From Candidatus Saccharimonadota bacterium (GTDB taxonomy: Bacteria; Patescibacteriota; Gracilibacteria; BD1-5; UBA6164), in NCBI GenBank assembly GCA_004563595.2, contig CP042461.1, forward strand, positions 780,001 through 812,000: 32,000 nt of DNA, given 5' to 3'. Positions 2,857-32,000 of the stretch are shown here, piece by piece; position 1 is the stretch's first letter; the number at the start of each line of letters is the position of its first letter. A model generated the notes under the pieces. It was given only the letters and a program-made list of their open reading frames with translations, was not told the origin of the DNA and did no database searches. The position numbers and the translations under genes are program-made.

Positions 2857-3540
2857 ATGGCACTAGAAACGTACACTCTCTCTCAGAAAAAAAAGCTCAC
2901 AAATGATGTTTATGAACTTATTTTTACGTCCGAAAAAGATTTCAATTTTGTATCAGGGCAATTTATTACTTTTATATTAAGTAGTATTTGATGAAGAGCG
3001 TATTCAATATTAAATATTCATTGAAAAGAAATCACACTGATAATAAAAAGACGGGATACCAATAATTGAGGAAGGTGATGAAGCATATACATATGTGATA
3101 AAACGATCTGAGAGACACTTATGTGAGTATGACCTGCATGAAGATTTGTGCTTCAACAAAATAATAAAAATAAACTATTCCTTTGAACATGAACTTGATT
3201 TGTTCCTCTTTACAATCAAATAATATGAGCACTCGAACTGCAACAAAAGTGTACTCTCAGACTTATTTTTTGAGTGAGAAATACTGAAGATCTCTTCTAC
3301 ATTAATCAATTAAAACAACTTGAAAAACTTCATAAGAATTTTCATTTTGATGTATACGTGAGTAGAGATCATCTCACGAAATACAATCATTGATATATCA
3401 CTGAATTTCTCACTCTTGATAATATAGAGGAATACGAAGAGTTTTATATATGCTGAGCACCATGAATGATTGATGCCTCAGTGGCTATATTAAAAGATAA
3501 AAACATTGAGGAAGAGAATATATTTACAGAGAAGTATTAA
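2857..3540 (+). CDS. FNR-like FAD/NAD(P)-binding oxidoreductase (227 aa)
   Basis: FNR-family motif order: FAD-binding GGRAYSI, then GVGPAGRF, NAD(P)-binding LFLGTGTGFVPL, and C-terminal FYICGAPGMI. There are many Gly-TGA codons. An alternative in-frame ATG at 2830 would overlap the putative -10 box. Confidence 0.75.
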
Positions 3541-3549
3541 TTATCTACT

Positions 3550-4161
3550 CTATAATACTAATTCTAAAACTTGTACAATATTATCATTTATTCATAAATT
3601 ATCAGTATCTTTTCAGATTATGCCTTTTAATACAACTGTTTTTTCAATTAAATTATTTTTTCATAATATAGATAAAACCTCATGTGATTCTGTATCAACA
3701 ATATCTATTCCTTCTTCTTCTAAAATATCTTCAACATTTTTCTTATCATTTGTGCTCAAACAAAGTCCATTTAAAACAAGTCCAAATTTATGTAAGTCGT
3801 AACTTTCTCATATAGCGTATTCTAAAAAGATTGATTTTCCATTTTCAATACTATCAATAAAAGTATTTGGTAAAATAACATCTCAAATATTTAATTCAAA
3901 ATCTATAACAGCTTCTGCATATCATAGGGCAAGAACTTTCTCTACATCATAGTTATCTAAAACGTCAGTGATTCATAATTCAATACTTTTATTATCACAA
4001 TAGAGTAAAACAATATCCTCTGATTCATCAGTGATTATATTTGTTCAGGTATAAATTTCAAAACCACCAGACTCTCAGTCTACTTTTGATAATTGAAACC
4101 TTGTTAGTACTTGTGTAAAAATGGTTTTTTGCGTTGTTATGATGAGTTTATTTATTTTCAT
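3550..4161 (-). CDS. hypothetical protein (203 aa)
   Basis: Open ATG..TAG frame under table 25 (MKINKLIITTQKTIF...VQVLELVL) with about 10 in-frame TGA codons. No motif recognised. Confidence 0.55.
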
Positions 4162-4298
4162 GATTTCTTTTTATTACTTTAATAATTATCCTTTTGAGGA
4201 TACTATAATTTTTCTCTTAAAAAGCAAGAAAATACTTTACAAAAAATAAATAATATATACATTAAAACTATATAAAATATTTTGTAATAAAATCAACT

Positions 4299-5363
4299 GT
4301 GGACAACAATATTATCCCTTTATTTTCATTTTGAATTGCAACATTTGTAGTATGATTTATCATGATCCCATTCTTTATAGATTTACTTATAAAGTTTAAG
4401 ATGTGAAAACAGATCCGTAGCGAAGCAACAATAGGAAAAGCTACTGAATTTGAAAAACTTCATAAGAAAAAGAAATGAACTCCTACTATGGGTTGATTCA
4501 TTATCATATTCATTGTGTTCTTAATGGTAATAGCAAGTATAATATTACAAGAGCTTGGCTTCATACGTAATTCTCTCCTCAATCAAAGAGAAACATACCT
4601 TTCTCTGTTTACTCTATTATCAGTATGAGGTTTAGGGCTTATTGATGATTATTTAAATATAAAGTGAGTCTGAAAAACCAAGTGACTCTCCGCAAGAGTA
4701 AAAATGTTCTGACTCATACTCTTTGCTACACTATGAGCATTTTGGTTTTATTATAAACTTTGATGGAATGTTGTAGATTGAATGTGAAACTATGTAAGAA
4801 CTTTAAATAATCCATTTTGAGATAATATATCAATCGGGTTATATTTTATTCCTCTTTTTATATTTATAATTATTGCAACATCTAATAGTGTAAATCTCAC
4901 AGATGGCCTTGATGGACTTGCATGATGATTACTTCTCTTTAGTTACTCTGTGTATGCGTATATCACGTATGATCAATGATTATTTCTTCTCTCAACACTC
5001 TGTATAAGTATCATCTGAGCTTTAGCAGCATTCTTATGGTTCAATGTAAAACCTGCCAAATTTTATATGTGAGATGTTTGAAGTCTCGCCCTATGAGCAA
5101 ACCTTTGAATTATGGCAATGATTACAAATACAGTATTTATATTAATCATAATATGAGCTATATTCATACTTGAAACTCTTTCAGTTATCATACAACTCAT
5201 CAGTAAAAAATTCAGAAACTGAAAAAAAATATTCAGAATTGCTCCATATCATCACCATTTAGAAGCAATTTGATGGTCTGAAGAAAATGTAGTTTTTAGA
5301 CTTTGGTTAATTGGAATGCTCTTTTCAGTTATCTGAATAATATTTTATATAATTCAAGGATAG
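4299..5363 (+). CDS. mraY: phospho-N-acetylmuramoyl-pentapeptide transferase (354 aa)
   Basis: MraY motifs are present: [53 protein letters not shown] and [16 protein letters not shown]. The start is taken as GTG 4299, the first start codon after the in-frame TAA at 4263. ATG 4362 would remove the first TM helix, so the start is uncertain. Confidence 0.9.
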
Positions 5364-5366
5364 TAT

Positions 5367-5912
5367 ATGGATATTTGGATATGAAATAGTTCTGAGCTAG
5401 ATACAAACCTAGTATCTCAAATTGAAGAAATGTCTCCATGGTCTTGTTTACAAGAATGAAAAATACTTGACTCTGATGCTCCTAATATATGGACTCGTTT
5501 TTTTAATGAGAATTTTGTTAGTATTATGACTGACCAAAAATCTAACTTAATCTCATGTTGATCATTTGGAAATAACTGAGAATTAGCAGAAGCAATAATT
5601 ACATCAACAAACTCGCAAGTTGAAGATGCTATGGTAGGAATGTTTTTATTTACTCATAACGACTTTCAAAATAAGGGTCATGCTGAAACAGTGAAAACAG
5701 CCCAGAAAACTTTCTTAAAAACAGAGCATACCTCTATCAAATCTCTCATCTGATGATGTGAAACACAAGAACAACTCAACCTTTACAAAAAATATTGAGC
5801 CAAAGAAATACAATTAGATAATCAACCTAACCCGATAATAACTCAGCAAGGAATTGATAACTGGATTTTTTACTCTTACTTAATGAATGAAATATGTGAT
5901 TTAAAATGATAA
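5367..5912 (+). CDS. hypothetical protein (181 aa)
   Basis: The ATG lies 3 nt after the mraY stop. The frame is open under table 25 (MDIWIGNSSELDTN...NEICDLKG) and uses both TGG (Trp) and TGA (Gly). No family recognised. Confidence 0.55.
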
Positions 5913-6205
5913 ATGAAACTTTTTGCTGTGGAAACTGTGGAAAGGAAATAGAAATACATCCAGAATGATCAGCTAGAAATCATTGTCCTTATTGTTTATA
6001 TTCAAAGCATCTTGATAAAGATTTTCCAGGAGATAGGAAATCTGATTGTGAATGATTAATGAGTCCTGTTGATATTGATTACAAAAAAAACAAATGAAAT
6101 ATGATCAAGCATAGATGTATGAAGTGCTGAAAAGAAATCCTCAATAAAGTTGCTCCTGATGATGAGTTCTTAGAATTCGTTAAAAAAAGAAACAAAACTG
6201 TATAG
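5906..6205 (+). CDS. RNHCP-domain zinc-ribbon protein (99 aa)
   Basis: MINETFCCGNCGKEIEIHPEGSARNHCPYCLYSKH...HRCMKCGKEI contains the literal RNHCP motif plus CxxC pairs. The start overlaps the upstream gene by 7 nt. Confidence 0.75.
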
Positions 6206-6221
6206 TTTTGTTTCTTTTTTT
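6182..6221. terminator. bidirectional rho-independent terminator
   Basis: aaaaaaAGAAACAAAACtgtataGTTTTGTTTCTttttttt: an 11-bp stem with an A-tract and a T-tract, placed between convergent stops at 6205 (+) and 6220 (-). Confidence 0.6.
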
Positions 6222-6885
6222 AATCTAAGATTTCAAGAGCTTTCTTACTTACAATATATGCATTTGGAGCAATATTTTTTGTATCGGGTAAGTCATCAAT
6301 TACATACCAGTTTCAAGCAATAGTGTTTTCATCTCAAGTAGCTGACAAAATTCATTCATATTTTTTTACTATGAAATGCATCAGACACACTAACTTATAA
6401 TATACCTCTCCGTCTTCTTTATTTTCTATTAATGCCCAATCTACAAGGGGTTTTTCATTGTATTCTTCGATAATTGTAACTCAAGTTCTATTTTTTGTCC
6501 TTATTCTTGCATTAGCTCTTACTTTTTCAAGATCGAACTTAAATGCTCAACTTTCTTGTATGATAACTTCTTTGTTTTCATCCTCTAGAGGACTTCATCA
6601 TGTAAATTGATGCTGTACTTTTCAATTTTTGTCAGTTGTAACTAAAAAAACCTCTTTTTTTGTATTATCTATGAAAACATGTCCGGAGGAATATACTCTG
6701 ACTACTTCTTTTCAATTATAAGTTTCTTTATTTATAACTTTTTCAAGCATTATTTCTGAAATATTTCAAGTCAGGTCCTTAAATCAGGCTTTACTCATTC
6801 ATTCATCAGTTTTTCTGACAGTGCAAAAGTTTATTCATTCACAAAATTCTCACTCTGGTGCTTTTGGTAGGTATGATTTTTCCAT
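6220..6885 (-). CDS. hypothetical protein (221 aa), last gene of the SUKH-MazG operon
   Basis: Open ATG..TAA frame under table 25 (MEKSYLPKAPEGEFCEG...SKKALEILD). A weak Nudix-like stretch FTGGSPLEDEN is present, but the catalytic REUxEE part is missing, so no family is called. Confidence 0.6.
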
Positions 6886-6912
6886 TATTTTTATTAATAT
6901 CTAATATAATAT

Positions 6913-7248
6913 TTATTTTAATTTTTCATTATTTTTATGCCTCTGACTATCTCGCTTTGTTTTTTTTTCAAGATTTTTTTGTAAAGCACTTGTTAAATCT
7001 ACTCATGTTTGGTTTGCAATACAGATAAGTACAAACAATACATCTGCTAACTCATCTCAGAGATCACCTTTTTCATCTGATTTTTTAAAGCTTTGCTCTC
7101 AATATGTCCTTGTAATTATGCGAGCTACTTCACCAACCTCTTCTATGAGCTGTCAAAGATTTGTAAGCTCAGAAAAATAACGGACTCAAATAGTCTTAAT
7201 CCAGTTATCAACGATTTCTTGTGACTCTTTGATTGTAAGTTCGTTCAT
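6913..7248 (-). CDS. MazG-like nucleoside triphosphate pyrophosphohydrolase (111 aa)
   Basis: Small all-alpha MazG/YpjD pattern: WIKTIGVRYFSELTNLGQLIEEVGEVARII...DLGDELADVLFVLICIANQTGVDL, carrying the EExGE and ExxD metal-ligand motifs. Confidence 0.75.
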
Positions 7249-7279
7249 TTTTTCACCTCATCTAAAAAATAATATTTAA

Positions 7280-7684
7280 TTAGCTCAGTTCACCTAAAAA
7301 TTCTTCTAATGAATCAGCCCGTTTACTAAGCCCTGCAGAGTGACTCCACATATAAACTGGGTAACTTTCTTCATCTTGTTTCACAGCAAAAAACTCTTCA
7401 GAATCAGAGCGAGAAGCATCCATCAATATTTCTTCCTGTTCATCATTAGTAGTAGAATATACTGCTAATGGAATATATCCCTCTGGCCAACCTTTAGATC
7501 AGATCCAGTCCATGAAATGAGGACCATTCAAGATTTGTGGAGCAATCACTTTTACAGCAGAAAAATCGAGTCATATTTGCAAAAAACTATCTTTATGAAT
7601 TTTTCCAGAATATTCCTCAGTTTTACATTCTACTAGTTTTTCCAATAACTCATTGTCTGCTTTCATATTAATTGTAATTCCCAT
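7280..7684 (-). CDS. SMI1/KNR4 (SUKH-1)-like protein (134 aa)
   Basis: SUKH-like pattern: ...GWPEGYIPLAVYSTTNDEQEEILMDASRSDSEEFFAVKQDEESYPVYMWSHSAGLSKRADSLEEFLGEL. This has the IP-A motif, an acidic loop, a late aromatic-W-H segment and a terminal F-EFL. The call rests on pattern only. Confidence 0.55.
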
Positions 7685-7785
7685 TTTATTAATTGATTAG
7701 TGAATAAACCATTCGTAAAAATTTTATTGCTTTCCTTGTTAAAGTCAATAGAGTCATACTAATAAACTTTTAAAAAGCATAAAAA

Positions 7786-8721
7786 ATGCAAAATATAGAA
7801 ATTTTTCTTACTCAATATATCAAACCAGATGAAAAAATAATACTTGGCTGTTCAGCATGACCAGACTCTATGTTTTTGTTATATAAAATTCTTGAAACAA
7901 AGTATGCTAAAAATCTAATAGTATGTTACTTTAATCATAAAACAAGGCCAGAGACTGACGAGGAAGAAATATTTATTGCAAAGCTCTGAAAAAAAGAATG
8001 ATTTACTGTTGAGGTTGCTGAATGTGATTTTGAAAAAATTAAAAAGCTCTATCCAAGTAAAAGTTTTGAAGAGCTTGCACGTGAAAAAAGATATGCGTTT
8101 TTTGATGCTATTTCACATATACATAATACAAGATATGTCCTCACAGCTCATCACCTAGATGATAAAATAGAAACTTTTTTCTTTAACCTTGCAAGGTGAT
8201 CAAAACTTACAGGTCTCATTAATATGACTGAGTCTTCATGATCTATATTAAGGCCTCTTTTATGAATTACAAAAAAAGAGATTCTAGATTATTTAGATTC
8301 AAATAATTTAGAATACAAAGTTGATAGTAGTAATGCTGAAATTGAATATACTAGAAATTATATTAGACATGAAATAATCCCTAAATTCTCAGAAGTTAAT
8401 TCGAATTATAAAAATAACATTTCTAAAACTCTCAGTTATTTTGAAGAGTTAAAAAATAGTATAGATGAAGAAGTTAAAAAATTTTTGCTATTGTCAAAAT
8501 GAAATATATTTAGTATAAAAGAATTCAACTCTCTCCCCTCTTTTATGCAAAAAGAAGTGATTAGATATATTTATTATATTTCGAATAATAAATCTACTAT
8601 TTGACTCAGTGAAGCAAATATAGCTGAGGTAATTAGATTTATAAACTGAAAAAATAATAAAACTATCAAAGAAATACAGTGATTAAAAATGGAAAAAGAT
8701 AATCTCATTATCAGATATTAA
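7786..8721 (+). CDS. tilS: tRNA(Ile)-lysidine synthetase (311 aa)
   Basis: N-terminal PP-loop ILGCSAGPDSMFLLY (SGGxDS type), followed by LTAHHLDDKIETFFFNLARGS and LRPLLGITKKEILDYL. No internal TAA/TAG was found when read codon by codon. Confidence 0.85.
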
Positions 8722-8752
8722 AAAAGATATATTTTAAAATATATCTTTTTTA
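8720..8752. terminator. weak AT-only bidirectional hairpin
   Basis: aaaaAGATATATtttaaaATATATCTtttttt lies between the tilS stop (8721) and the convergent stop at 8754. The stem has almost no GC. Confidence 0.4.
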
Positions 8753-8753
8753 A

Positions 8754-9035
8754 TTATTCATTATTTTCAGTAGTATCTGTAACCCTATTTTCATACAATC
8801 AGGCAGGAATCTCTCACTCAGTTTGTAAGTGATGAATATGTGCTGCAAAATCTGATGTTATTTCAGTAAACACCTCTGGTATTTGTTCTCTTTCTCAATT
8901 AGTCAATTCAAGATCGATTCAATCTTGATTGTTATTTGATTGATCATCAGGTGATAATATTTTACTAGCAGGATCTACATTTTTTCATTGACTATTTTCT
9001 CTCGTTGGAGCTCCTGGAATATTCACTATTTTCAT
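8754..9035 (-). CDS. hypothetical small acidic protein (93 aa)
   Basis: Open ATG..TAA frame under table 25 (MKIVNIPGAPTRENSQG...TDTTENNE). No motif recognised. Confidence 0.45.
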
Positions 9036-9095
9036 AACATAACTTTAAAAAATAATATTCACTATATTAACACAGATTAATTTATATGTAAAACA

Positions 9096-10565
9096 TTATC
9101 AGGCTTTTTTATCATCTAAAACTGAGATGAGTTGATTTAAATATTTTTTTGATAAATCAGCTTCAATTGATTTCATTGTTTTAGGTCCAAAAACTCAGGC
9201 TCCCATATCATCAGTGTGTTGTATAATTTCTTTATCTAATTGATAGTCAATTAGACTTGTTTTTGTAATGTCTCAAAATATTGCTGTATCTTTATTATCA
9301 AAATATCATAATTCTTTTAATGTTTTTTGTAACTCTCTTACTCCAGGTGATACTTCTCCAAATTTTGGAGATCAAAGAGATACTAATTTATCTTTTGCTT
9401 TTTTCTCTGAGAGATCCTCTAGTTCTTTAAATTTCTTTTCCAATTCTTGTTTTCTTTCCTCTTCCTCAAATTTCTTTTTTTCAATTTCTAAATAATTACC
9501 ATATTTCTTCTGTAAAACAGCTCTCGTTTTTGGTCCGTAACTTCATGCTCCTGGAGTATACTCACTTACTACAATCCCTTCTGAAATTTGGAAATCATAT
9601 ATCGTACTTACAAGATCTTTATAATTTCATGTAAGTTTTCATTCATATATTCATAATTTTATTAAAACTTCTTGTAAAAGTTTAATATCTTCTTTTTTTG
9701 TAACGTTTCACTGTAATATATTTTTATATTTATCAGTATTTTCTAATACTGTTCATTTATCATGATTCTTATTTTCTACAAATTTATCTCACTCTACTAT
9801 GTCATATTCTCAATTTAAATACTTTTTTAGAAATAATGCTCTTGTGTTCCCTCCCCAATAACCAGCTCAATTGTAGGTTCATTTTTTAATGAGTTTGTTT
9901 TCTATTTGAAAATCATAAATAAAATCAATTAAATCCGAACTATATATTCCGTTCATTTCACCAGTATATACTCAAATAGATATAAGGAATTTTTTCAAAT
10001 TATTTACCAGTTTTTGATCACTATCTTTCCCTATTCATGTATTAAATATATTTGGGATTTTTTTAAAATTTTTAGTTACCCATGTAGGAGCAGATATATT
10101 ATTATAATCAAGCGTTGTTTGTGTATTTTGTTTTACTATATTTCATTTCACAGTCCTTTTTCCCCAATATAATGCTCTTCTTAATCCTTCATCTCCATAC
10201 CCTACCCAAACATCTATCCTATCATAACTATAGCCTCTATTTCAAGCATTTACAATCGCTCATCACCTATCCTCTATTACTCATACTCATAATCACTCTA
10301 AATGAATCTTCGTTCAAAATTTATAATTTTTTGGTCAAGCAAGCATTCATGAAAAAACTTTTTTTCATGATGCTCATGCAATTCATTTTCAATTAAGCCT
10401 CATCTCACTTTTATAATCTCAAGTCAGGTAATAGTTTTGATCTGGAAGAGGAGAATAATATGCAGTTACAACAAAATATCCAGCATTACTATTAGAAAAA
10501 GCTGTATATGGGTACAAAAAAGATACCATTGAAACGGATAATATAAAGGCTAAGATTTTCCTCAT
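9096..10565 (-). CDS. secreted 3D-domain (MltA/RlpA-like fold) protein with three peptidoglycan-binding repeats and a charged coiled-coil linker (489 aa)
   Basis: Signal peptide MRKILAFILSVSMVSFLYPYTAFS. The 3D domain reads YFVVTAYYSPLPDQ...GKGIAGASGKKVF...GVIEDRGGAIVNAGNRGYSYDRIDVWVGYGDEGLRRALYWGKR. PG_binding_1-like repeats follow (GVYTGEMNGIYSSDLIDFIYDFQ; GIYEGKLTGNYKDLVSTIYDFQ; GYFDNKDTAIFGDITKTSLIDYQ), with an E/K-rich stretch between repeats 2 and 3. Confidence 0.8.
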
Positions 10566-10610
10566 AAATATTTTCTTAAAGGTATTAATATATGAGTAAT
10601 TTTAGCATAT

Positions 10611-10645
10611 AAAAAGCTTATCTGACAAATATCGATAAGCTTTTT
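10611..10645. terminator. hairpin terminator between the two 3D-domain genes
   Basis: aaaAAGCTTATCtgacaaatatcGATAAGCTTttt: a 9-bp stem with flanking A/T tracts, lying downstream of the stop at 10682 (-). Confidence 0.55.
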
Positions 10646-10681
10646 ATATTATTTTTAATTGACGACTTTAAAATTAGTATT

Positions 10682-11935
10682 TTAAAGTATTAATTTTAAA
10701 AATTTTAGTTGTTGTTTTTTCTTTTTAGATCCAGATTTATCAATGACTTTTTCCAATTTTTTCCTGAAAGAAGATTTGATTTTATATTTCTTTAAATTAT
10801 TTCATCCTGATAGAGTATCAATATATGAAAGTATTTTATATTTCACTTTTTTTAACTTGAGTATTTCCCTTCTTGTAAGTTTTGTATAATCCTTTAAATA
10901 TTCAACCTCTGCAAATATTCAAGATCAAAACTGAGTATGCAAAGTATCTAATGTTTTCACTCAAAAATATCATGCTTCTTCACTTATCCTACTTTCTATG
11001 ATATGGTTTTTTATCTGAAAATCTATGAGTTCATCTTTTATACTGTTATAATCTCCATCAATATCTTTATTATACAGTTTAATTTCAGTAAATAAGGATT
11101 GTAATTTTTTAATATCATCCTTTTTACTCTCAGCATTTACTCTCAATTTATTATATTTTGTAACTGGTGACTCATCAAATCCTACAGTAGGTAATTGCTC
11201 ATCTTCAACTATTCTTCATTTCACTTTTCTTTTTCACCATTTCAAAGCTCTTCTGAGTCATTCATCTCAATATCACATCCATATATCGATTCTATCATGC
11301 TCAAATCATCTCTCTCAAGCATTTACAATTGCTCACCCTCTATCTTCAACACTTCATATTCAAATTCATTCTAGTTCAATTTTAGTCCCATACTTATAAT
11401 TTCTTGGGGCTGCGAAAAGTCCCACGAAAACAGGTTTTCATGAAGCAGTAATTTTTCAATTTCAATTCAACCTTTTATCTCAGGCGTATGTTCAAGTAGT
11501 ATATCTTTTTTGTCATGGAAGCGGTGAATAATATGCAGTTACATAAAAGTATCTCTCATTACTTTCAGGCTCATCAACTTTCAAGGTGTTCAAATTATCC
11601 TTAAATCTATCTCAAAATTCTTTTTCAAGAGCAGTAAGGGTTTTCTTTCAAAAAAATCATGCTCACCAATCATCGCTATATTTTACTATTCATGCTGTCA
11701 TTTGATAATCAATGAGAGATTTTTCTATACTTGAATATTTTCCATCAATATTTCAATTATATAAATCTAAACTTTTAAAGAATATTTGAAGTTTTGTTAT
11801 TTTTACGATATTAGACTCCGCAGATATATTTGATTCTATACCAGAAAAAGAACTAGATGCCGAGACACCTAGAACTCCAAAAAAGAAAAATATGATTGAT
11901 ACGAGTATAAGAACTATACTCTGGAATGGTTTCAT
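10682..11935 (-). CDS. secreted/anchored 3D-domain protein, paralog with permuted domain order (417 aa)
   Basis: Hydrophobic N-terminus MKPFQSIVLILVSIIFFFFGVLGVSA. A PG-binding repeat comes first (LYNGNIDGKYSSIEKSLIDYQ...GFFGKKT). The 3D domain follows: YFYVTAYYSPLPGQ...GNGKITASGKPVF...GSVEDRGGAIVNAGERGFEHDRIDIWMGYGDEGLRRALKWGKR. A second PG-binding repeat and a K-rich tail complete it. The track ORF 11753..11935 is only the N-terminal fragment. Confidence 0.8.
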
Positions 11936-21780: not shown

Positions 21781-21809
21781 AAAAAAGAGATATACGAATC
21801 TCTTTTTTT
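21781..21809. terminator. hairpin terminator after the PTD-repeat gene
   Basis: aaaaAAGAGATatacgaATCTCTTttttt lies immediately downstream (minus sense) of the stop at 21808-21810. Confidence 0.55.
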
Positions 21810-23025
21810 AATTTTCTAAACAAATCGTAAATGCCCAAAAATAATTATAAACTGGATCAGTTGTTTTATATGCAACAGCTCCAATCTTAACACCAGCTAC
21901 ATTAAATACTTTATAGTAATCTCCTCAACTTGTTTCATTTGAAATAAATAAGTTCCAAGTCGCTTCTGGGAGTTCTAAAGTAGTAATACTCGAGATATTT
22001 GAATAGATTTTGAATTCATTAAAACCTATTGGACAAGCTTGGATAGTTGGGAAAATAGGGCTTCTCATAGAATCTACTACTACTTTTAATTGTTTTCATC
22101 AACTTACGTATGCAGTATTATTGAAATAACCTAGTGGATCTGTTGGGTCCGTTGGGTCCGTTGGATCCGTTGGATCTGTTGGGTCCGTTGGGTCCGTTGG
22201 GTCCGTTGGGTCCGTTGGGTCCGTTGGGTCCGTTGGGTCCGTTGGGTCCGTTGGGTCCGTTGGATCTGTTGGGTCCGTTGGATCTGTTGGGTCTGTTGGA
22301 TCTGTTGGGTCCGTTGGATCTGTTGGGTCCGTTGGATCTGTTGGGTCCGTTGGATCTGTTGGGTCCGTTGGATCTGTTGGGTCCGTTGGATCTGTTGGGT
22401 CCGTTGGATCTGTTGGGTCCGTTGGATCTGTTGGGTCCGTTGGATCTGTTGGGTCCGTTGGATCTGTTGGGTCCGTTGGATCTGTTGGGTCCGTTGGAGT
22501 TACTATAACTGGAGTTGTTGTTTCTTGTAGTGGTTCTTCTTCTGTTATGATTTCAGTTTCTTTTACTACTTCCTCTACAATATCAGTTGAATCTTCGATA
22601 ATATCTGTTTTTCACTTTTCTGTCACTGTGGAACTATCAGGTTCTGTTGATCAATTAGTATTTTGACTAGAAGAGCTTCATTTGTTAGATGTACTTGTAG
22701 AGTTTGTATTTTCTGATCACTCAGAAGTATTTGATTGATCAGGTGCAGATGCATAAGGAACCTCTTCATTAATTCACTCTCATTCAGAAGCTTGAGTAGA
22801 AGTTTCATTTGAAGTTCACTCTGGTCATTCAGATGAAGTATCAGTTTCTTCCTGTTGATCCGGACTTGAAACCTCAATTACTATTAATTTCTCACTTTCC
22901 TGAAAAGAAGGAATAAATGCAAATACTACTCATCAACTTATAAGCACTCAAACAAAACCCAAAAGTACGATCGTTTTATGATATTCAAAAAATATCATAA
23001 AGTCATTTATCCAATCATTTAACAT
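21808..23025 (-). CDS. membrane-anchored surface protein with (Pro-Thr-Asp)x40 repeat linker (405 aa)
   Basis: N-terminal TM segment (TIVLLGFVGVLISGGVVFAFI), about 130 aa of S/T/E/N-rich acidic low complexity, 120 aa of uninterrupted PTD repeats, then a C-terminal domain of about 108 aa (PLGYFNNTAYVSGGKQLKVVVDS...YNYFWAFTICLEN). The track + strand ORF 22134..22508 is the antisense shadow of the repeat. Confidence 0.75.
22135..22494 (-). repeat. 40 tandem 9-bp units (coding sense ACGGACCCA / ACAGATCCA)
   Basis: I counted 40 in-phase units directly. There are 9 consecutive ACGGACCCA units (22180-22260) and 11 perfect 18-bp alternating pairs (22297-22494). Two hybrid units sit at 22162 and 22288. 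All differences are synonymous third-position changes. The repeat is a GC-rich island in AT-rich DNA. Confidence 0.95.
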
Positions 23026-23131: not shown

Positions 23132-24571
23132 TTATTTATATAAAAGTTTATAATCATCAATTTCAGCACTCGTAGCACTTAATTCTATAATTGGATTTCA
23201 AACTGACATAATAGTACCATCTCAATAAAAACTTTTTGGAATATCATTTATAAATAATTCTATACTAATTCAAGAAAATATAATCTTCACCGTACTATTA
23301 TTTGGAATAGCTTCAACAAGTGAATCCAAAGAAACCAAACTTCACAAATACATTCTTTCTATATTATATCAATTTGTAGGATGAAGAGTAATTACATAAT
23401 AATTGTTTGCATCGACATAACGAGAATATATCTTTATATCTCCTCATTGGAAATCAGATATTGTCAATTCAAGTATTGTATCTGCAGAAGTAATAGCAGG
23501 AGAAGGTAGAGGAATCACTCATGATCAAGCACTAATTTTTCTTAATTTATTTCAGACAATAGAATATGATCATATACTAGCCCCTGTCCATGATCACAAA
23601 GTATCAGGTACATGAGAAAGCAAAGCTTCATCAGTTCAAAATGTATCACTGAAAAGATTATCAGGTGCAGCATCATTCACTGCTTGAACTAAATCGTTTC
23701 AAATCTTTATTCCATTTTCTTTTAACTTTTCAATTGATCAAAGCTGAAAAGGCGTGGTAAGTGAATGGAAAATTATTTGATCAAATTGTATTTTTCAATT
23801 AAATGTTTGATATGCAAGAGATAACTTAGATATATATGAATTTAATTCTGATAAAGTGGTAACACTACATGAATTTAAAACTTCTGAGATAGTAAAATCG
23901 ACTCATGTAAGTGGAGTATCCACTTGGTCTTGAAAATTTGTTGGAATATTTAAACTCGTATTATAACTAAATTTGTATGTTCCAGCATTTGATAAGATTC
24001 ATCATGCAGGAACATCTGTTATCATCATTGATGGTATTGCTAAATTATAACAAGTACTTCAAGTTTGAACTTTCATATCATACAAATCATATTCTCATGC
24101 AACAAAAGCTTGAGCTTCATTATTTGAAAGCGCATTTGTTTCTGAAATAATGTTATTATTATAAGAAAACAAATCTCCCTCCATAATTCATCCAATCTCA
24201 TATTTTTTTCTTGAACTAGAAACAGAATAATTATACTCTAATTCTAATAAAGGATCAACTGGTTTGTGTGATAAAGTTCCTAAGTTTGTCATAACATTAT
24301 CTCAAAATACTCATTGAGAAAAAACAAGCGCTCATGAGTATGTTATATCCTGAGCATTATCTGCTTGGGGATACTTTCATGTTTTCACTACAAAAATTCA
24401 TAATGCTTGTTTCATAGTTCAAACATCAATAGATCTTACTGAATTTCTTGATTTTTTTGAGTACCCTTGAAGTGATAAAAAAGCTATAGTTCACAAAATC
24501 GCTAATATTGTTATAACAACTATCAACTCAACTATTGTGAAACCCTTTGTAGTATTTCTCATAACTTTGCA
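23132..24571 (-). CDS. large type IV pilin-like protein with C-terminal LamG/ConA-like region (479 aa)
   Basis: Prepilin class III signal ...YEKYYKG/FTIVELIVVITILAILGTIAFLSLQGY (Gly-1, Phe+1, Glu+5), followed by about 440 further residues. The tail ...YVDANNYYVITLHP...VKIIFSGISIELFINDI resembles a LamG-type jelly roll. The start is assigned to TTG 24569-24571, the only canonical start in frame, with GGAGGA 15 nt upstream. The nearby ATG 24561 is out of frame. Confidence 0.8.
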
Positions 24572-24615: not shown

Positions 24616-24644
24616 AAAAGTCTAGTATTTTAACTAGACTTTTA
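24616..24644. terminator. hairpin terminator closing the ATP-grasp/MFS/GltS-like operon
   Basis: aaaAGTCTAGtattttaaCTAGACTttt lies 48 nt downstream (minus sense) of the stop at 24692 and upstream of the pilin start. Confidence 0.5.
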
Positions 24645-24691: not shown

Positions 24692-26374
24692 TTATTTCCT
24701 AATATTCATTTTTAATTGTTCAGCAATATGCTTTTTTTCAAGTAAATGTGGGCTATTCACTCATGAAATTGATGCTACTTGAATTAATCATTTATTATGA
24801 GCTTTCACAAAATTCCCAATTTGTTCTATTTTTTTATCCCAAGTTTGTTTGTATGCTCTTCTATTTTTCTTTTTCATAGTTGCAAGCCCTACAGGACAAT
24901 CTCAATATTCACCTGAACATAAACCAGCTCTAATACACCCTCATGCAATCATTATAGACCTTGCATTTCAAATTGCATCTGCTCAAAGAGCAAGAGCCTT
25001 CGCTGACATAAATGGAGAATAGAGTTTTGCAGATGCAAATACTCTTACCTTATCTCTTACATTATATTCATTGAGAGTTTCAATAGCTATCTGAAGAGCT
25101 TCATATATTTTCTTTCAAAATAATGTAGAAAGGTAAATTGGAGCTGCTCATGACCCACCATCCCCTCAATCAATAGTAATAAAATCTGGTGCTATTTCTG
25201 GATAATCTGCAATTGCTTTTGCGAGTGGTTTAATGTTTGATTTATCTGATATAACTATCTTCATTCACACAGGCTTTCCTCATGCTTTTTCAGAAAGATG
25301 ATCAATAAACTCAAAGAACTCTTTTTCTCATCATTTATTATAAAAGGGGAATCTATTTGGAGATATCAGATCATGTCCTGGCTCTACTCACCTAATTGCA
25401 GCTACCGTTGGATTATTTTTTACAGCTTTTAGTACTCAACCACTTTGTTTTGCTCATTGAGCAAGTTTAATTTCAACCCCTCTACAAAATGACATAATTT
25501 TCTGAAACCTATCCCAATTAAATTCTAAACTTCCATCTGTAGTATGTTTTTTAAGTCCATAGAGTCACGAACCTATTTGTAAAATAACTTGTCAGAAATC
25601 ATCTGTCATATCTTCTACTTTTGGAAAAGCACTTAATGGTGCTGACCAATCAATGGTATAAAATACAAACGAGTCTTTGCAAAATAAATATAAATCAGTT
25701 TTATCTTTTTCTAATAATTGTTTCGCAAATATATCAACGATATGATTTTTTAACCTTGCTCAAGGTGTTAACTTGTAGAGTATTTTTCAAATTTTAGGAA
25801 GTCTAACATATTTAAAATATTTTTTATCTTCACTGAATGGAATCCTTGGAACATGTTGAATCGCAAATCCTCATTCTCCTGTATTGAATGGTGCTTTTGT
25901 GTCAGCACAAGCTGCAGCCATTGCAGAAGTTGCCTCAAAACTAAGAGCTCACAGACTCATCGCACTTCTATATATATATGAACCAAATTGAAATGGGTGT
26001 TTTCTTTTTTCTCATACAATTGGAAATTTTACATCCATTTCATCTGCATTTAATGGAGTTGAAGAGTGAATCATATCATATTGACCATTATGAAGTGTTC
26101 CACTCGAATCAAATTTATCAAATCAAAAATATCCAGTTTTCCCACTTGATACCTTTAAAATCCAATCAATTACAACTCTATTTACAAAATCATTATCATC
26201 CAAAAAATATTGCCTTATAAAAGGTCTTATTTCATGGCCTAAGTATCTGAATCTCCCAATAAGTGGAAAGTTTGCAAGTACTAAATTTTTTGTCTGAAAA
26301 AATCTATCATATATTGCTACACATAATAACAAAGCAATGATAAATCAGATAATTCCTAGAAATATATATAACAT
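24692..26374 (-). CDS. membrane-anchored FMN-binding glutamate-synthase-family oxidoreductase (GltB domain-2 homolog, 560 aa)
   Basis: N-terminal TM segment MLYIFLGIIGFIIALLLCVAIY, then NFPLIGRFRYLGHEIRPFIRQYF. FMN-domain motifs are AMSLGALSFEA, KLAQGAKQSGGVL, DLISPNRFP and ITIDGGDGGSGAAP. The C-terminal stretch is GGCIRAGLCSGEYGDCPVGLATM. The track ORF 26123..26332 is a fragment. Confidence 0.85.
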
Positions 26375-26412
26375 ATATATAATAATTAAAAGGTAAAAAA
26401 ATAATTTTTAAA

Positions 26413-27576
26413 TTATGTTTGTGAACTTCAAAGGGGTTTATACAAAATAAATAATAATGATATTGGTGCTAAGATATAGTATACATACATTAAAGATATT
26501 TCAATACTCCATTTTGTATTATAAAAGATCAAAGCCAAAACTCAAAATATAAAAAATATAAAGAATTGAGAATAATAACTTTTCATCATCATATAACTGT
26601 GGGTATCTACACTTTTTGCCGTATGAAAGAATTGTTTATTAAAAACCAGACGGAAAAACGAAGTGCAAAATGCAATAACCAGAACCAGTAGATAGATAAC
26701 ATAATTATCTTCTAAATTACCTACATATCATCTAAATATCCAGGAAAAGGCATATAATATCACCGCAACATAAAGAAGTTGTTGTCATTGTACCTTATCT
26801 ATTTTTTTCTTTATTCATATAAAAATTACTGAAAAAACAATAGCTAACACAACCACCAAAATTCATAACTTATGATAACTTTGTCCAGTAATTAAAAATA
26901 ATGACAATAACCAAAAAAAACTTTCAAAAAATAAAAATGGTCCGTCTAGCATAAATATATACTTAGACCTTAATCTATCCTTAAAAAGGAATACTTTTTT
27001 GAGAGAAACTGGTGATGCTTGAGAAAATTCTTCCAAATTTTTCACCAATTTCTTATGACTTACAAAGTAATATACCCCGTATGCAGATAACAAGATTGAA
27101 ACTACTAATACATAATCATAGTGATTATTCCCTAAAAGATATGATCAAAGCAAAATCCCTATTTTTACAAGGACAAATGCAATAATTTGAATATTTCAAA
27201 ATTTATCTCATACTTCATGTTTCTCTGTACTCGAAACAAAAAGAACTCTTTTTGTAAGCCAAAAAAAACAATTATATACTCAATATATAATTGAAAATAA
27301 AAATAAAAAAAGGAAATTTTTATCAAGTGTTCAAACACATAATATTCAGATCTCAAGAAAAAAAGAGATGACAATCAGGATTCTTATACCACCTTTGTAT
27401 CTGATTCTATCCCATACAAGCATTGATATAACAAAACTCAGTCACGTAAGTGATATAAAATATGAAATCTCCGAAAGAGAAAATCAATTTTTATATAGAA
27501 ATACTGGAATAAAAAATATGAATAATCATGTTAATATAGAATGGAGTCACAAAAAGTTGTATAATATTTTTTTCAT
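26413..27576 (-). CDS. MFS-type transporter (387 aa)
   Basis: I read it codon by codon, and the frame stays open under table 25 from ATG 27576 to TAA 26413. There are about 10-12 hydrophobic segments. An MFS motif-A-like loop MLVWDRIRYKGGIRILIV (G-x-x-x-D-R-x-G-R/K type) follows TM2. The track ORFs 26863..27093 (in frame) and 27165..27374 (off frame) are a fragment and a shadow respectively. Confidence 0.75.
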
Positions 27577-27607
27577 TTATCCTGTTATCTCATTTAAATA
27601 TAAAGGT

Positions 27608-29365
27608 TTAATATATCCCTCTTCACGTAATATCAAGAGCATCAAGTTTCTCATATAATGGTTTCATATCTGGTTTTTCTCAATATCTTGGATAATTATG
27701 CATTTCAAGATATGGTCTCGAGTTTACTTCTAGGAATATACATTCTTGCTTATCAAAATCTACATCAATTCCCTTTTCCATAATGACATCTATACCAAAT
27801 ACATTCGCTCCAAACGCATCAAGAATTTTAAAAAATATTTCTTTATTTTTTTCAGTGATAGTTTCTACTCCAACTGTTTCGAGTACTCCTCCTGGAGCTA
27901 AAGAAACTCTATGATACATTGTTAATTTCTTCCCTTTTTCTAATATACTATCAAAGTGATAGCCAAATTGTTTCATATGATTTTTTACTCTGCTTCACTT
28001 TTCAATAGTATGAATAACAGGAATTAAATTCATTTTTTCTCTCTCCTTATTTTCTTCATCAATAAGTCTAGAAACTGTTTTTTTTCCATCTCAGATTACA
28101 AAACCGGGGTATCTTTCCATAACTATATCAACCGATCACTTTGTTACTACAACTCTATAATTTTTTCATAATAAATATTGCTCTATAACACTTGATGGCC
28201 ACCAAAGTTTTACAAAAAACATAGCTTTCCAAAAATCTTTATAATTCGTGATTGGAAAGAAGCTCCCGCGCGAGTATCCTCATACGTTTGGTTTTAAAAC
28301 TACAGGAAATCAATGCTGTTGTACAAATTTATAAGCTGTATAGGGATTATAAAATATACTTCCCTTTGCATGAGGAACATCATATTTTTGAAACATCTCT
28401 CTTGCTTGTTTCTTTGATCTACATAATTTTCTCACTTCTAGTGAATTATAATCAGAGCATCCATGTAAAAACTTATCTTCTATAAATTTATATATTAATT
28501 TTTTAATTTTCATAAAGGACTTATTATTATTTAATTTAATTTTATAATGAGTAAATATTTTTCTAAAAAATATAGATTTGTTATTTTCCTTTGGTATATG
28601 TGAAGTCAAAAGAGCTAAACTTTTCGTAAATTTTTTTAGAAACTTGTTCTTTTCAATTTGTAAAATATTCTTATCAAGAAGATGCAAAGGAAATGGAATA
28701 AAAATATTTATTTCAAATATTTCAAATATTCAATCTTTTAAATCCTGAAGACTATGAGATTTTATTCATACCCTCGCTATGTTAAAGTCTCATATTTCTT
28801 TCATGTATCATCTAAATCTTTCTTTCTGAGTCTCACTCCATTTATCTGATATATCATGATATGTCGTATTACAATAAATTCCATTTATAGGATATTTTGA
28901 AGCTTCACTTGGTTTTGCTTCAACCATGCTTTGAAGAGTAATCATATGAGGTTGAATAGGATCCCTTGTATATAATACCTCATATTCATTCTGATATTGA
29001 GAAGTTTCTTGATATATATATGATATATTATCTTTTTTAATTTGCTTTAAACGCCTCACTAATTCTTTTTCAGTCTCTACTACGAATATTCCATGAGAAT
29101 TTTGTCCCCATTCGGGTTTAAAAAAAACAGGAAGTGACATTCTTGATAAAATTTTATTTTTTTGATCTGTTATAGACAAATTACTTTCTATGATATAACT
29201 CTGTAATTTCCACTTATCTGGAATATTATCCTCTATCTCACATTTTGAGTAAATACCTTTTTCATCATTAAAATACTTTGCATTCAACTGAAAAAACCTC
29301 CATGGTCTTGTTTTGATAACCGTGCAGGAATAAATATAGTACAAAATTATTTTTAATCTGAGCAT
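27608..29365 (-). CDS. fused double ATP-grasp ligase (585 aa); C-terminal module is cyanophycin-synthetase-G-domain-like
   Basis: One continuous table-25 frame joins track ORFs 28808..29365, 28310..28687 and 27680..27976. Module 1 (about aa 1-240) has LPVFFKPEWGQNSHGIFVV and FEIFEINIFIPFP (E-x-N). A K/N-rich linker follows. Module 2 (about aa 310-585) has AREMFQKYDVPHAKG, GFPVVLKPNVGGYSRGS, VIEQYLLGKNYRVVVTKGSVDIVMERYPGFVIGDGKKTVSRLIDEEN, LAPGGVLE and CIFLEVNSRPYLEMH (E-x-N). Confidence 0.8.
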
Positions 29366-29383
29366 AATCGGGAAATTTCAGTA

Positions 29384-29911
29384 TTATTTTTTACTTGCTT
29401 CAAAAGCAATTGTTGATGCAGCTTTTCATATATTAGAATTCTCTACATTAATTCAATTGGCTTTAAGAATACGTACCATAGTATCTAAATGATGAGTTTT
29501 ATGTTGAAAATGTGCATATAATATTTCACTTTGATAATTTGTTACTATGTGCACTTTTTTTCAGCTAGGAATAGTATCTATCTTGGTAACATTTTTGGTA
29601 AGGTCAATTTTTTTATATTTAAGCGTGTCAATTATCTGAAAAATCTCGATTTTAAAATCCCTAAAACTCGTTTCTAATAAGCTATCTCTTGTCCTTGTTC
29701 ATGGATAATCAATAATACCTGGCTCTCCATTATATTCTGCTTTTATATATCAATTTATGACAGTATTCATATGATCAACAACATGCCTAACATGTTTTCA
29801 TATTAATTCGTACGATGAATCTGATAAATCATTTAAATAGGATATCTCCTGAAAAATATTCTCTGACTCTATTATTACATCTTCATTTGTTAATGTATTT
29901 TCTTCACTCAT
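29384..29911 (-). CDS. DinB/YfiT-like four-helix-bundle protein (175 aa)
   Basis: The spacing of the His clusters is typical of the DinB_2 superfamily: HVRHVVDHMN near the N-terminus and HFQHKTHHLDTM near the C-terminus. It ends 18 nt before the ATP-grasp ATG. Confidence 0.65.
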
Positions 29912-29983
29912 TGAAACTCAACTCTCTATTCACATAGATTATAAAACTTATATATATATTGTTACTCTTCCTTTTTATACAAC

Positions 29984-30517
29984 CTACATTTTTTTTCAAA
30001 ATCACATTACTTCAATTATTTTCTTAATCATTGTAAAAAGATTCTTGAAATGAGTTACAAATAAGGCAAGTCACAATCCCCAGATTGAGACTGCTGCTCT
30101 AAATAAACTTCCTCCATCATTATTTACTTCTACACCAAGAGGAGTAAATAAATGAAAAAATATAGCTCATGACATGATCATTACTGCTCACAAACCTCAC
30201 AGAGCAAATAGATATTCTGGAACCATCTTTGCCTTGAATAATCATAGTAATTTAGCTATATACATAAGTACAGGAATGATGAGTAATATTGATATAATTA
30301 ACTCTCCTGTTCATATCAGATATGCTCAGTAATTAGTAAATCAATTTCAAATAGTCTCTCAAAAAGTCATACTCATCCACTCTCATATAGTTCAAAAAAT
30401 GTGTTGAGTTTCTGGATCATCAGTAAACTTAAACGTGAGTGAAATCAAAAAGACATATGATATCCAAATAGAGACCAACGAAGTTACCGTTTTTTTAATT
30501 ATAGAACATGTTTTCAT
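29984..30517 (-). CDS. DoxX-like small membrane protein (177 aa)
   Basis: Four hydrophobic segments with the G-ELI pattern (YLIGTGELIISILLIIP; GGLGAVMIMSGAIFFHL). The frame ATG..TAG is open under table 25. The family call is tentative. Confidence 0.5.
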
Positions 30518-30673
30518 AATATAAAAATTAACAAATAATATAAAATTAACATCGTAATAAAATATTTTAAAAAAGCTCTAGCCTATAAGACATTGTAATA
30601 TTATTTTACTAAAACTCAAACGATATTTTATGAGTAAAACTTAAATTAATCTTAATTCCAATTTTTATATTAT

Positions 30674-32000
30674 TTAAATTGCTAATTTATCATCTGCTAC
30701 GAAATATGTTGGGTCTTCAATTACATTAATATCAACAATTTTATCTGCATTCTTGATAAGCTTTCTACAATCTGGTGATAGGTGTTTTAAATGAAGCGTT
30801 TTTCATGCTTTTTCATATTTTTCTGTAAGAGAATCTATAGCTTCAATAGCAGAATGATCCATTACTCTTGAATCAGCAAAATCAATAATAATTTCTTTTG
30901 TATCATTTTTTACATCAAATAATGTTTTGAATTTTGTAATCGAACCAAAGAACACTGGTCAATCTAAGTCATAATGAGTAATATTATCTGAATCAATAAA
31001 CTTTTCTACATGTATACATTCTGCCTTTTCCCAAGCAAAAACTAAAGCTGAAATAATAACTCATGATACCACTGCAAGAGCTAAATCTCAACTTACAACA
31101 GTAATAGTAGTAACCGCAATTATTACAAATGCATCACTTTTTGGAATTTTATTTAACATTTTTATTGTTGGCCATGCAAACGTACCAATTACAACTATAA
31201 ACATAAGCCCTACAAGCGCAGCAAGAGGAATCATTGAAATGTATGCAGTAGCAAAAACAATAAGAAGTATTAAAAATATTGAAGATGAAATTCAAGACAT
31301 TCTCCCCCTTCATCCATTTGATATATTGATCATTGATTGCCCTATCATCGCACACCCTCACATCGCACCGAAAAATCAACAAATAGTATTTGCAATTCAT
31401 TGACCAATTGATTCTCTATTCCCTTTTCATCTTGTTTCAGTAATCTCATCAATAAGAGTTAGAGTCATTAATGATTCTGTTAAACCAATAATAGCAAGAA
31501 TAAACGAATATGGGATAATAATATACAACATCTCTAAAAGTGGTATATCTATAATAGGAATATGGAAGCTTGGAAATGAACCAATCAAACCTGTATAGCC
31601 ATTTTCAGATAAGTATGATGATACCGTTCTTACTCCTTCAAAACCAGGTATAAATAGGACAAGTAATGTAACAAATACAATAGCAACTAATCATGATGGA
31701 ATTGCTTTTGTTAATTTTGGTAAAAAATAAATGATTCACATAGTAAGCAAAATCAAACCTCACATAATGAGGAGTTCTTTTTGAGCCAGCCATTCTCATC
31801 ATACTTTAAATTGCCCGATTTGAGCTAAAAAGATAATGATTGCGAGTCCATTTACAAAACCAAGCATTACAGGATGAGGTATAAGTCTCACGAATTTTGC
31901 TCATCAGAATATTCAAAAAAGTATTTGAATAAGTCACATGAGAATAAGCGTTGCAAAGAGATATTCAATACCATGAGCCAGAACAAGAGAAGTCATTACA
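30674..32000 (-). CDS. SulP-family anion permease with C-terminal STAS domain (N-terminus beyond window end)
   Basis: [17 protein letters not shown], the SulP signature [38 protein letters not shown], and the STAS tail [15 protein letters not shown]...[22 protein letters not shown]...[12 protein letters not shown]. The frame is still open at 32000. The track ORF 31149..31400 is an off-frame shadow. Confidence 0.9.

Follow-up and report, generated by a model that had tools for sequence, protein, structure and literature searches.

Operons in which ATP-grasp ligases build small peptides are known, and the described enzymes closest to the one studied here are cyanophycin synthetase (CphA), GshF and Ngg. 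To our knowledge, the characterized members of the clade formed by the CphA G domain, the C-terminal domain of GshF and Ngg all activate the C-terminal α-carboxylate of a dipeptide, an N-acyl amino acid or a peptide and add a free amine to it. In the G domain of CphA1, Asn394 and Arg458 recognize the Asp substrate and His267 lies in the P-loop (PMC9427784). We analyzed five adjacent genes, called g1 to g5 in the order of transcription, in a 32,000-nucleotide stretch of a Gracilibacteria genome (GenBank assembly GCA_004563595.2, contig CP042461.1, positions 780,001 to 812,000; hereafter the window). They are predicted to encode a membrane protein with four transmembrane (TM) helices (g1), a DinB-family protein (g2), a ligase with two fused ATP-grasp modules (g3), a transporter of the major facilitator superfamily (MFS; g4) and a flavin mononucleotide (FMN) enzyme resembling glutamate synthase (GltS; g5). 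We propose, with moderate confidence, that this locus is the Candidate Phyla Radiation (CPR) version of a conserved, uncharacterized biosynthesis-and-transport module that uses sulfur-amino-acid derivatives to make a small compound with amide linkages. The core of the module, formed by g1, two ATP-grasp ligases and the MFS transporter, is unstudied and occurs in approximately 300 mostly marine bacterial species. What is new here is the pair of ATP-grasp ligases, their membrane partner and the CPR-specific fusion of the two ligases.

Scanning species-representative genomes returned 299 relatives of the ligase. Most are from marine Gammaproteobacteria (Amphritea, Neptunomonas, Psychromonas, Colwellia, Granulosicoccus, Endozoicomonas, Sedimenticola and Arenicellales), and others are from SAR324, Desulfobacterota and a few CPR genomes; the proteobacterial hosts include free-living and host-associated marine lineages. 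A word-indexed protein search had returned CPR relatives only, suggesting a ligase family restricted to CPR, and the genome scan overturned this. The earlier note on this DNA, made from the sequence alone, had called such a cluster unexpected in a lineage with minimal biosynthetic capacity. It is indeed present in Gracilibacteria, but the module is widespread in marine Proteobacteria, where the ligase genes are separate. Outside CPR, the ligase consists of two adjacent genes that correspond to the two modules of g3 and that we call GRASP_N (~281 aa) and GRASP_C (~302 aa). These two genes most commonly overlap by 4 nt (17 of 63 junctions), suggesting that their translation is coupled.

For neighbor counts, we clustered all open reading frames (ORFs) of 84 loci from several phyla. 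GRASP_C was present in 73 loci, GRASP_N in 69, the g4-type MFS in 65 and g1, always adjoining the ligase, in 54. No other gene accompanies the ligase pair as constantly as the MFS gene, which adjoins it in 65 of 73 loci. Less frequent families were a secreted YHS-domain (seleno)protein (40 loci), g2 (24), a pyridoxal phosphate (PLP)-dependent decarboxylase (12), a TANGO2-like protein (10), the g5-type GltS (8) and a cupin of the cysteine dioxygenase (CDO) type (6). The canonical gene order is YHS, g1, GRASP_N, GRASP_C, MFS, DinB, TANGO2. The YHS protein is encoded 5' of g1 (for example at 8910-9374 of the Amphritea balenae locus L007), has a signal peptide, conserves a GGYCAWA motif and matches the NCBIfam model YHS_seleno_dom at 1e-48; this family includes selenoproteins, and the window has no YHS gene. 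Recurrence of the same neighbors across loci from several phyla argues that the arrangement is not due to chance.

Genes in the window are read with genetic code 25, in which TGA encodes Gly; all were called as code-25 ORFs, table 11 yielding fragments only. ORFs of at least 100 codons covered 6.9 kb with TGA as a stop and 49.5 kb with TGA as a sense codon. Where g1, g3 and g4 have TGA (42 codons), standard-code homologs have Gly in 63% of the aligned cells; Gly is invariant at 10 of these positions and the commonest residue at 30, while Trp is commonest at one. This prevalence of Gly indicates that UGA is read as Gly, and G/W alternation at TGA positions gives further support for code 25. Under this code the layout in the earlier note proved correct. 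All five genes lie on one strand, with gaps of 48 or 72 nt between g1 and g2, depending on the start of g2, and then of 18, 31 and 38 nt. No minus-strand terminator-like site was found in a scan of the cluster. The hairpin 3' of g5 has a z-score of -4.71, was matched in stability by none of 200 shuffles and is followed by UUAUUAUAUU. The five genes are thus a real operon. A sigma-70-like TTGAGT-16-TACAAT 5' of g1 (30619-30592) is a consensus match only, and promoter-like matches in this region are not more numerous than in shuffles.

We compared twelve distinct CPR loci. In all twelve, g1 adjoins the ligase, and the ligase is fused in every one examined, with the possible exception of L033, where it was called as two ORFs. 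This fusion points to a physical complex of the two modules. Full-length fused proteins are rare: an exhaustive profile search found only two among 1.84 billion cluster representatives. Ligases from CPR (Gracilibacteria and one Peregrinibacteria) group in a single clade, and their identity to the best-matching proteobacterial sequences is 46-49%. A recent transfer from Colwellia, as hinted for the genes next to a repeat gene of this genome (PMC6851277), was considered and is not supported for the ligase, which shows no special affinity to Colwellia and in CPR forms a clade of its own. The MFS proteins of other CPR loci are 46-58% identical to g4; in one CPR sub-lineage, genes for DUF6796, FG-GAP and DedA/VTT proteins stand in place of the MFS gene. 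Apart from identical copies, the window cluster is most closely related to the Gracilibacteria locus L084, with a ligase 62%, an MFS 58% and a GltS 74% identical to those of the window. Its order (2225-11325) is CDO, g1, a DUF2721-like gene, PLP decarboxylase, ligase, a 178-aa protein without assignment, MFS, GltS, MsrA and MsrB, and upstream is a class-V aminotransferase of the cysteine desulfurase/sulfinate desulfinase type. Co-occurrence of these genes in related genomes, which the earlier note had proposed to check, was therefore seen both in CPR and in the 84-locus set.

Both ATP-grasp modules that the earlier note had read in g3 are present. Searched against NCBIfam, GRASP_C matched cyanophycin synthetase over positions 210-460 (5e-43), GshF (1e-26) and Ngg (3e-18), all far below the cutoffs of these families; the cyanophycin synthetase match reached 147 bits, where the cutoff is 850. 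The best solved structures were 7wac (4e-25), 7ta5 (2e-20) and 3ln6 (3e-17), and Foldseek returned the same set. The nearest outgroups of GRASP_C are themselves uncharacterized proteins. Among 73 GRASP_C sequences, K318, K358, the G363-S-R-G-S loop, E395, D526, E546 and N548 are invariant, and conservation reaches 90% or more at about 100 positions. Alignment with TeCphA1 showed that the pairs K318=K220, K358=K261, R404=R309, R418=R323 and E546/N548=E450/N452 are kept, whereas Y364 stands for H267, S488 for N394 and E554 (Lys in most homologs) for R458. The module has the ATP-binding lysines, Gly-rich loop, hinge Glu and D...E-x-N Mg ligands by which an ATP-grasp enzyme is recognized, and these catalytic residues are intact; it is predicted to be active, probably with chemistry of the same type as that of the CphA G domain, in which a C-terminal α-carboxylate is activated and an amine is added.

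This relationship raises the question of whether g3 makes a cyanophycin-like storage polymer, GRASP_C elongating a poly-Asp-type backbone and GRASP_N replacing the Mur-ligase domain for the side-chain residue. The G domains of CphA1 and CphA2 are the best matches of GRASP_C in both sequence and structure, g3 would bring two ligation activities together in one protein, as CphA1 does, and amino acids are converted to cyanophycin in the metabolic reconstruction of the Candidatus Gracilibacteria bacterium 28_42_T64 genome (PMC6851277). However, neither a Mur-ligase (M) nor a CphA N domain was found in g3 with Pfam or NCBIfam. The lack of these domains, the low family score and the replacement of the Asp-binding residues therefore argue that g3 is not a cyanophycin synthetase. 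In addition, the window cluster has no cyanophycinase gene, and the constant partners, the MFS transporter and the 4-TM protein, fit a small molecule. We consider a storage polymer highly improbable, and the published cyanophycin assignment for 28_42_T64, if it rests on g3, would not be supported by the sequence of this protein. Separately, the uncharacterized proteins P0202 (1467 aa) and P0207 (773 aa), which have two or three tandem CphA-G-like ATP-grasp modules and an acylphosphatase domain, are part of a broader, unexplored radiation of the clade that contains GRASP_C.

GRASP_N is more divergent. It gave weak Pfam ATP-grasp matches at residues 30-129, and its family profile matched Ddl/VanA at 5e-4. 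In an AlphaFold2 model it is predicted to be a compact ATP-grasp fold (pLDDT ~85-90) with Ddl, ArgX and RimK as Foldseek neighbors. K83, E85, Q88, N89, G92, Q119, E127, E129, R198, E218 and N220 are invariant in 77 sequences; judged by spacing, R198, 20 residues before E-x-N, appears to occupy the slot of the Mg-binding D526 of GRASP_C. The public gene call for g3 (P0001, 559 aa) begins at Met27 and so omits residues 1-26 (window 29287-29365). These residues (R-L-K-I...C14...P21-W...F-Q) are conserved across phyla, also in separate GRASP_N genes, indicating that the true start of g3 is at 29365.

With RimK and LysX/ArgX among the structural neighbors, the ligases might instead act on a protein or peptide, adding residues to its C-terminus or side chains in the manner of RimK, TTL or graspetide ligases, as in the modification of ribosomally synthesized peptides, with the membrane proteins as target or exporter. 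In Granulosicoccaceae (L015, 13235-16042, and 7-8 other loci), an AMP nucleosidase gene and an M14 cytosolic-carboxypeptidase-like gene lie just 3' of the MFS gene; the M14 gene is beside the cluster in eight loci of this family. Such M14 enzymes presumably shorten poly-Glu tails. No conserved acceptor stands out, though, as the C-termini of g1, g2 and the YHS protein are variable, and GRASP_C falls in the CphA-G/GshF clade and not among graspetide ligases. No recurrent small precursor ORF was noticed in the gene orders, which were not searched systematically for one. Such tailing is very unlikely in our judgment.

Besides the two ligases, the core of the module that we propose comprises g1 and g4. 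In keeping with the earlier label, g4 matched Pfam MFS_1 (3.6e-15, 56.2 bits, cutoff 33.4) and has 12 hydrophobic segments. By contrast, the label DoxX for g1 did not survive profile searches. The window protein has no Pfam match even at E<=10. Members of its family matched DoxX_2 in 2 of 30 cases (best 4.7e-5) and DoxX in 1 of 30, with equally weak matches to Zip; the four-TM topology is compatible with DoxX but not specific to it. The protein matched a hidden Markov model (HMM) of standard-code family members at 2.1e-54, and this family comprises 905 clusters, every one named 'hypothetical', with a precomputed Pfam domain in 0 of 120 database homologs. Its invariant residues include W18, K30, H122 and a D-G-G-S-L-F motif. 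The AlphaFold2 model of a family member has a pLDDT of 95.9, and a Foldseek search of PDB structures with this model returned nothing better than E=0.59. Thus, g1 belongs to a large unannotated 4-TM family, and the DoxX label is not supported.

The remaining two genes, g2 and g5, are more restricted. Hypothetical protein A9Q91_03810 of Candidatus Gracilibacteria bacterium 28_42_T64 has the same sequence as g2 (100% identity); a protein database search returned only g2 itself, and the window protein had no direct match in Pfam. However, 21 of the 22 members of its family match Pfam DinB/DinB_2 (best 8.6e-11), and the window protein matched an HMM built from the other 21 members alone at 1.9e-14. 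The family conserves residues resembling a metal site (H48, R50, H51, D54, R81, R83, E88, E137, H145, H148 and H149), and the invariant H48, H51, H145, H148 and H149 would fit the H...H-x3-H metal-binding triad that DinB proteins carry on a four-helix bundle. The earlier DinB call holds at the level of the family. In proteobacterial loci g2 mostly lies 3' of the MFS gene, and among the CPR loci examined the window genome alone has it; the ~180-aa proteins encoded 3' of the ligase in other CPR loci were considered as DinB candidates and show no homology to DinB.

The assignment of g5 as an FMN GltS-like enzyme was confirmed. It matched Pfam Glu_synthase (6.4e-58, 197 bits), and alignment to residues 960-1165 of ferredoxin-dependent GltS (Fd-GltS) showed that the K-x-AQGAK and DGG-x-GA motifs and three cluster cysteines are kept, the latter with the spacing C-x5-C-x6-C-P in place of C-x5-C-x4-C in GltS. 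No glutamine amidotransferase domain was found in g5; only GltS positions ~930-1165 were matched, and the N-terminus is a single TM helix. Among approximately 10 CPR loci with enough flanking sequence, 8 have the g5-type GltS linked to the ligase, as does one Deltaproteobacterium, whose GltS has a different N-terminus. Thus, this GltS is an addition specific to CPR apart from this one case. The GltS proteins of L084 and L086 are 74-75% identical to g5, whereas the ligases of these loci are only 59-62% identical to g3.

This uneven distribution allows the alternative that only g1, the ligase and the MFS transporter are a functional unit and that the DinB and GltS-like genes of the window are co-transcribed with unrelated roles. 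DinB is missing from every other CPR locus examined, GltS is missing from nearly all proteobacterial loci, and in L001, L002 and L087 four other genes separate GltS from the ligase. Nonetheless, GltS is linked to the ligase in most CPR loci and independently in the Deltaproteobacterium, DinB is found 3' of the MFS gene in 22 proteobacterial loci, and the gaps of 18-72 nt in the window contain no terminator. That the unit is limited to these three genes is in our opinion unlikely.

Within the larger module, accessory genes in several lineages point, from their sequences, to sulfur chemistry. In SAR324, Desulfobacterota and Sedimenticola, genes for a PLP decarboxylase and a CDO-type cupin immediately precede those of the ligases, and the same pair is found next to the fused ligase of Gracilibacteria locus L084. 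The best solved relatives of the decarboxylase are cysteine sulfinate decarboxylases (CSAD, 5e-80) and GADL1, and the cupin keeps the Arg-type CDO motifs Y-x-R, H-x-H and S-x-H-x-Y. MsrA/B genes are near the ligase in L084 and L052, and a fused MsrAB gene precedes the SAR324 cluster. In two Gammaproteobacteria (L013, 7454-9622, and L014), a 722-aa fusion of a DedA/VTT domain and a class-I pyridine-nucleotide disulfide oxidoreductase is encoded between g1 and GRASP_N; this flavin-dependent (FAD) disulfide reductase is related to MerA, glutathione reductase and lipoamide dehydrogenase.

The earlier note had suggested a small-peptide or low-molecular-weight-thiol module. In the thiol version of this idea, the ligase modules would make a glutathione-like Cys peptide, DinB would be an S-transferase, the MFS protein an exporter, and g1 and the YHS protein would serve envelope redox homeostasis. 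Several features are consistent with it: the resemblance of GRASP_C to the glutathione-forming module of GshF, the presence of the DinB family, the glutathione/mercuric-reductase-like FAD disulfide reductase inside the L013 and L014 clusters, the MsrA/B neighbors and the conserved Cys in the GGYCAWA motif of the periplasmic YHS protein, a member of a (seleno)protein family. On the other hand, the recurrent partner cysteine dioxygenase destroys the thiol and comes with a CSAD-like decarboxylase, no glutamate-cysteine-ligase-type domain is present, and the reductase is in only 2 and DinB in 24 of the 84 loci. Proteobacterial host lineages normally already make glutathione, which also counts against a thiol. 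Since the CDO and CSAD-like pair is recurrent, a sulfinate (hypotaurine) building block is favored over a free thiol. The sulfur and redox part of the earlier idea thus stands, in the GshF-like module and in accessories of other lineages, and its thiol product is improbable.

In the biosynthesis that we propose, the Ddl-like GRASP_N would link two small building blocks, a carboxylate and an amine, to give a dipeptide-like intermediate. GRASP_C would then phosphorylate the C-terminal carboxylate of this intermediate and add a third amine. C-terminal carboxylate activation throughout the clade argues for this order. The terminal amine would be a decarboxylated sulfur amino acid, such as hypotaurine, made by CDO and the CSAD-like enzyme or scavenged. 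CphA1 R458, which binds the α-carboxylate of the incoming amino acid, is not conserved, and together with the CDO and CSAD-like neighbors this makes a hypotaurine-like amine plausible. The MFS protein would move the product out or a precursor in. The DinB protein, with its presumably metal-dependent, thiol-transferase-type fold, and the GltS-like FMN/Fe-S enzyme would be lineage-specific accessories, the latter perhaps converting a 2-oxo acid to glutamate or a similar amino acid, or catalyzing a redox step. As for the role of the compound, our best guess is that it serves as an antioxidant or redox agent, or as a compatible solute. Gene structure, domain identities, conservation, the fused or split state of the ligase and the intact catalytic residues are direct observations; from these we infer the order of the reactions, the substrates, the direction of transport and the physiological role.

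Several points weigh against this proposal. Neither the CDO nor the CSAD-like decarboxylase gene is present in the window, and most gammaproteobacterial clusters likewise have neither. Accessory sets vary by lineage (YHS, DinB, TANGO2, GltS, DedA, AMP nucleosidase/M14), and the product or its use may differ with them. In GRASP_N, the invariant R198 seems to replace the first Mg-binding acid, and this module could have a different working or a regulatory role. The AlphaFold2 model of GRASP_C is of moderate quality (mean pLDDT 69), the modeled sequence, P0001, having Trp at TGA codons. No description of the module was found in the literature searched, in agreement with the earlier statement that this gene combination matches no described system, and its homologs are uniformly named 'hypothetical protein' in databases.

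A more specific form of the proposal is tentative, and we rate it as possible but doubtful. It holds that a widespread and hitherto unrecognized marine pathway uses two ATP-grasp ligases to attach a decarboxylated sulfur amino acid (hypotaurine made by CDO and the CSAD-like enzyme, or scavenged taurine or hypotaurine) to a dipeptide, giving a new glutathione-like sulfinate or thiol tripeptide that serves as an antioxidant/redox agent or osmolyte and has a dedicated MFS transporter, and that Gracilibacteria captured this pathway, fused the ligases and recruited the GltS-like enzyme.

If the proposed function is right, approximately 300 species share an undescribed biosynthetic pathway, including cultured Amphritea, Neptunomonas, Psychromonas and Colwellia, sulfur-oxidizing and host-associated lineages and some CPR bacteria. 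This pathway could yield a redox or osmotic metabolite not known before and tied to the marine cycling of taurine, hypotaurine and cysteine. A rare anabolic small-molecule pathway would then have been kept in the 1.3-Mb genome of a CPR scavenger, and a 'minimal' CPR cell would have small-molecule stress chemistry of its own. The analysis also likely corrects a cyanophycin mis-assignment in the published metabolic model of this genome, if that rests on g3. The question is directly testable with the cultured hosts that carry the module.

The coordinates of the operon and of other features of the window are listed in the table. Upstream of g1, on the same strand and 156 nt away, is a gene for a SulP-family transporter with a STAS domain that runs off the end of the window; its proximity to the module is not kept in other lineages. 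Downstream of the operon is a gene whose 476-aa product carries a type IV pilin methylation motif at its N-terminus (Pfam N_methyl, 1.1e-6); the large C-terminal part of this protein matched nothing in Pfam. This gene lies between the operon and another, at a GC spike (22001-23000), that encodes a protein of 405 aa in which the tripeptide Pro-Thr-Asp (PTD) is repeated perfectly over a long stretch. The PTD-repeat gene is the hypervariable gene reported for the closed genome of Candidatus Gracilibacteria bacterium 28_42_T64, and the genes adjoining it look non-CPR in origin (PMC6851277). Farther away are genes for two paralogous secreted proteins with a common YxVTAYYSPLP...GGAIV core and peptidoglycan-binding repeats, one of which matches Pfam PG_binding_1.

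Table. Features of the operon and its surroundings, in coordinates of the window.
Feature	Coordinates	Strand	Basis or remarks
Operon, five genes	30517..24692	minus	code-25 ORFs
AT-rich 156-nt intergenic region 5' of g1, likely promoter region	30518..30673	minus	
g1, 177-aa membrane protein, four TM helices	30517..29984	minus	code-25 ORF, TM prediction
g2, divergent DinB-superfamily protein, 183 aa	29935..29384	minus	175 aa from alternative start 29911
g3, two-module ATP-grasp ligase, 585 aa	29365..27608	minus	
g3 N module, GRASP_N, ~residues 1-282	29365..28520	minus	distantly Ddl/VanA-like
g3 C module, GRASP_C, ~residues 283-585	28519..27608	minus	
g4, MFS transporter, 387 aa, 12 TM segments	27576..26413	minus	Pfam MFS_1
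g5, GltS-type FMN/[3Fe-4S] domain protein, 560 aa	26374..24692	minus	one N-terminal TM anchor
Intrinsic-terminator-like hairpin 3' of g5	24616..24644	minus	13-bp stem, -15 kcal/mol
SulP-family transporter	30674-31996	minus	off window end
476-aa N_methyl protein	23132-24562	minus	
405-aa PTD-repeat protein	21808-23025	minus	
Secreted protein, paralog 1	9096-10565	minus	Pfam PG_binding_1
Secreted protein, paralog 2	10682-11935	minus	

Compared with known systems, the module is closest to CphA1 and CphA2 in the core of the G domain. GRASP_C aligns to TeCphA1 residues 219-466 (E=4e-25) with an identity of only 22-28%, and it keeps the ATP-binding lysines, the acyl-phosphate Arg (R309=R404), R323=R418 and the Mg ligands. 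It differs in that g3 is without N and M domains, its partner activity being a second ATP-grasp module, in that the GRASP_C family has Tyr for His267, Ser or Ala for Asn394 and Lys or Glu for Arg458, and in that the module genes sit with MFS and membrane protein genes and not with cyanophycinase. GshF has a C-terminal ATP-grasp domain homologous to GRASP_C (NCBIfam 1e-26; 3ln6 3e-17) and carries out two successive ATP-dependent ligations in one polypeptide, as g3 may do. However, GshF begins with a GshA-type ligase module whereas GRASP_N is a Ddl-like ATP-grasp, GshF models match g3 residues 319-565 only and do so with their C-terminal ATP-grasp part, and nothing in the module points to Glu, Cys or Gly as substrates. 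The Ngg/AsnO pathway, which makes the osmolyte dipeptide N-acetylglutaminylglutamine amide, likewise has an ATP-grasp enzyme homologous to GRASP_C (3e-18) and yields a small amide-linked solute in Proteobacteria, but Ngg has a GNAT domain and an amidotransferase partner, and the module has neither. The bacilysin genes BacD/BacE also combine an ATP-grasp ligase and an MFS transporter in one operon. Here, though, there is no significant sequence relation to BacD (the L-amino acid ligase (Lal) BL00235 matched GRASP_N marginally, E=0.017), and the module has two ligases and no prephenate-derived tailoring genes. Finally, the animal and bacterial route to hypotaurine and taurine uses CDO and cysteine sulfinate decarboxylase, and several versions of the module, a Gracilibacteria one among them, have genes for an Arg-type CDO and a CSAD/GADL1-like PLP decarboxylase directly next to the ligases; the window has neither gene. 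We know of no ligase step in taurine metabolism, and a linkage of hypotaurine to a peptide would be new.

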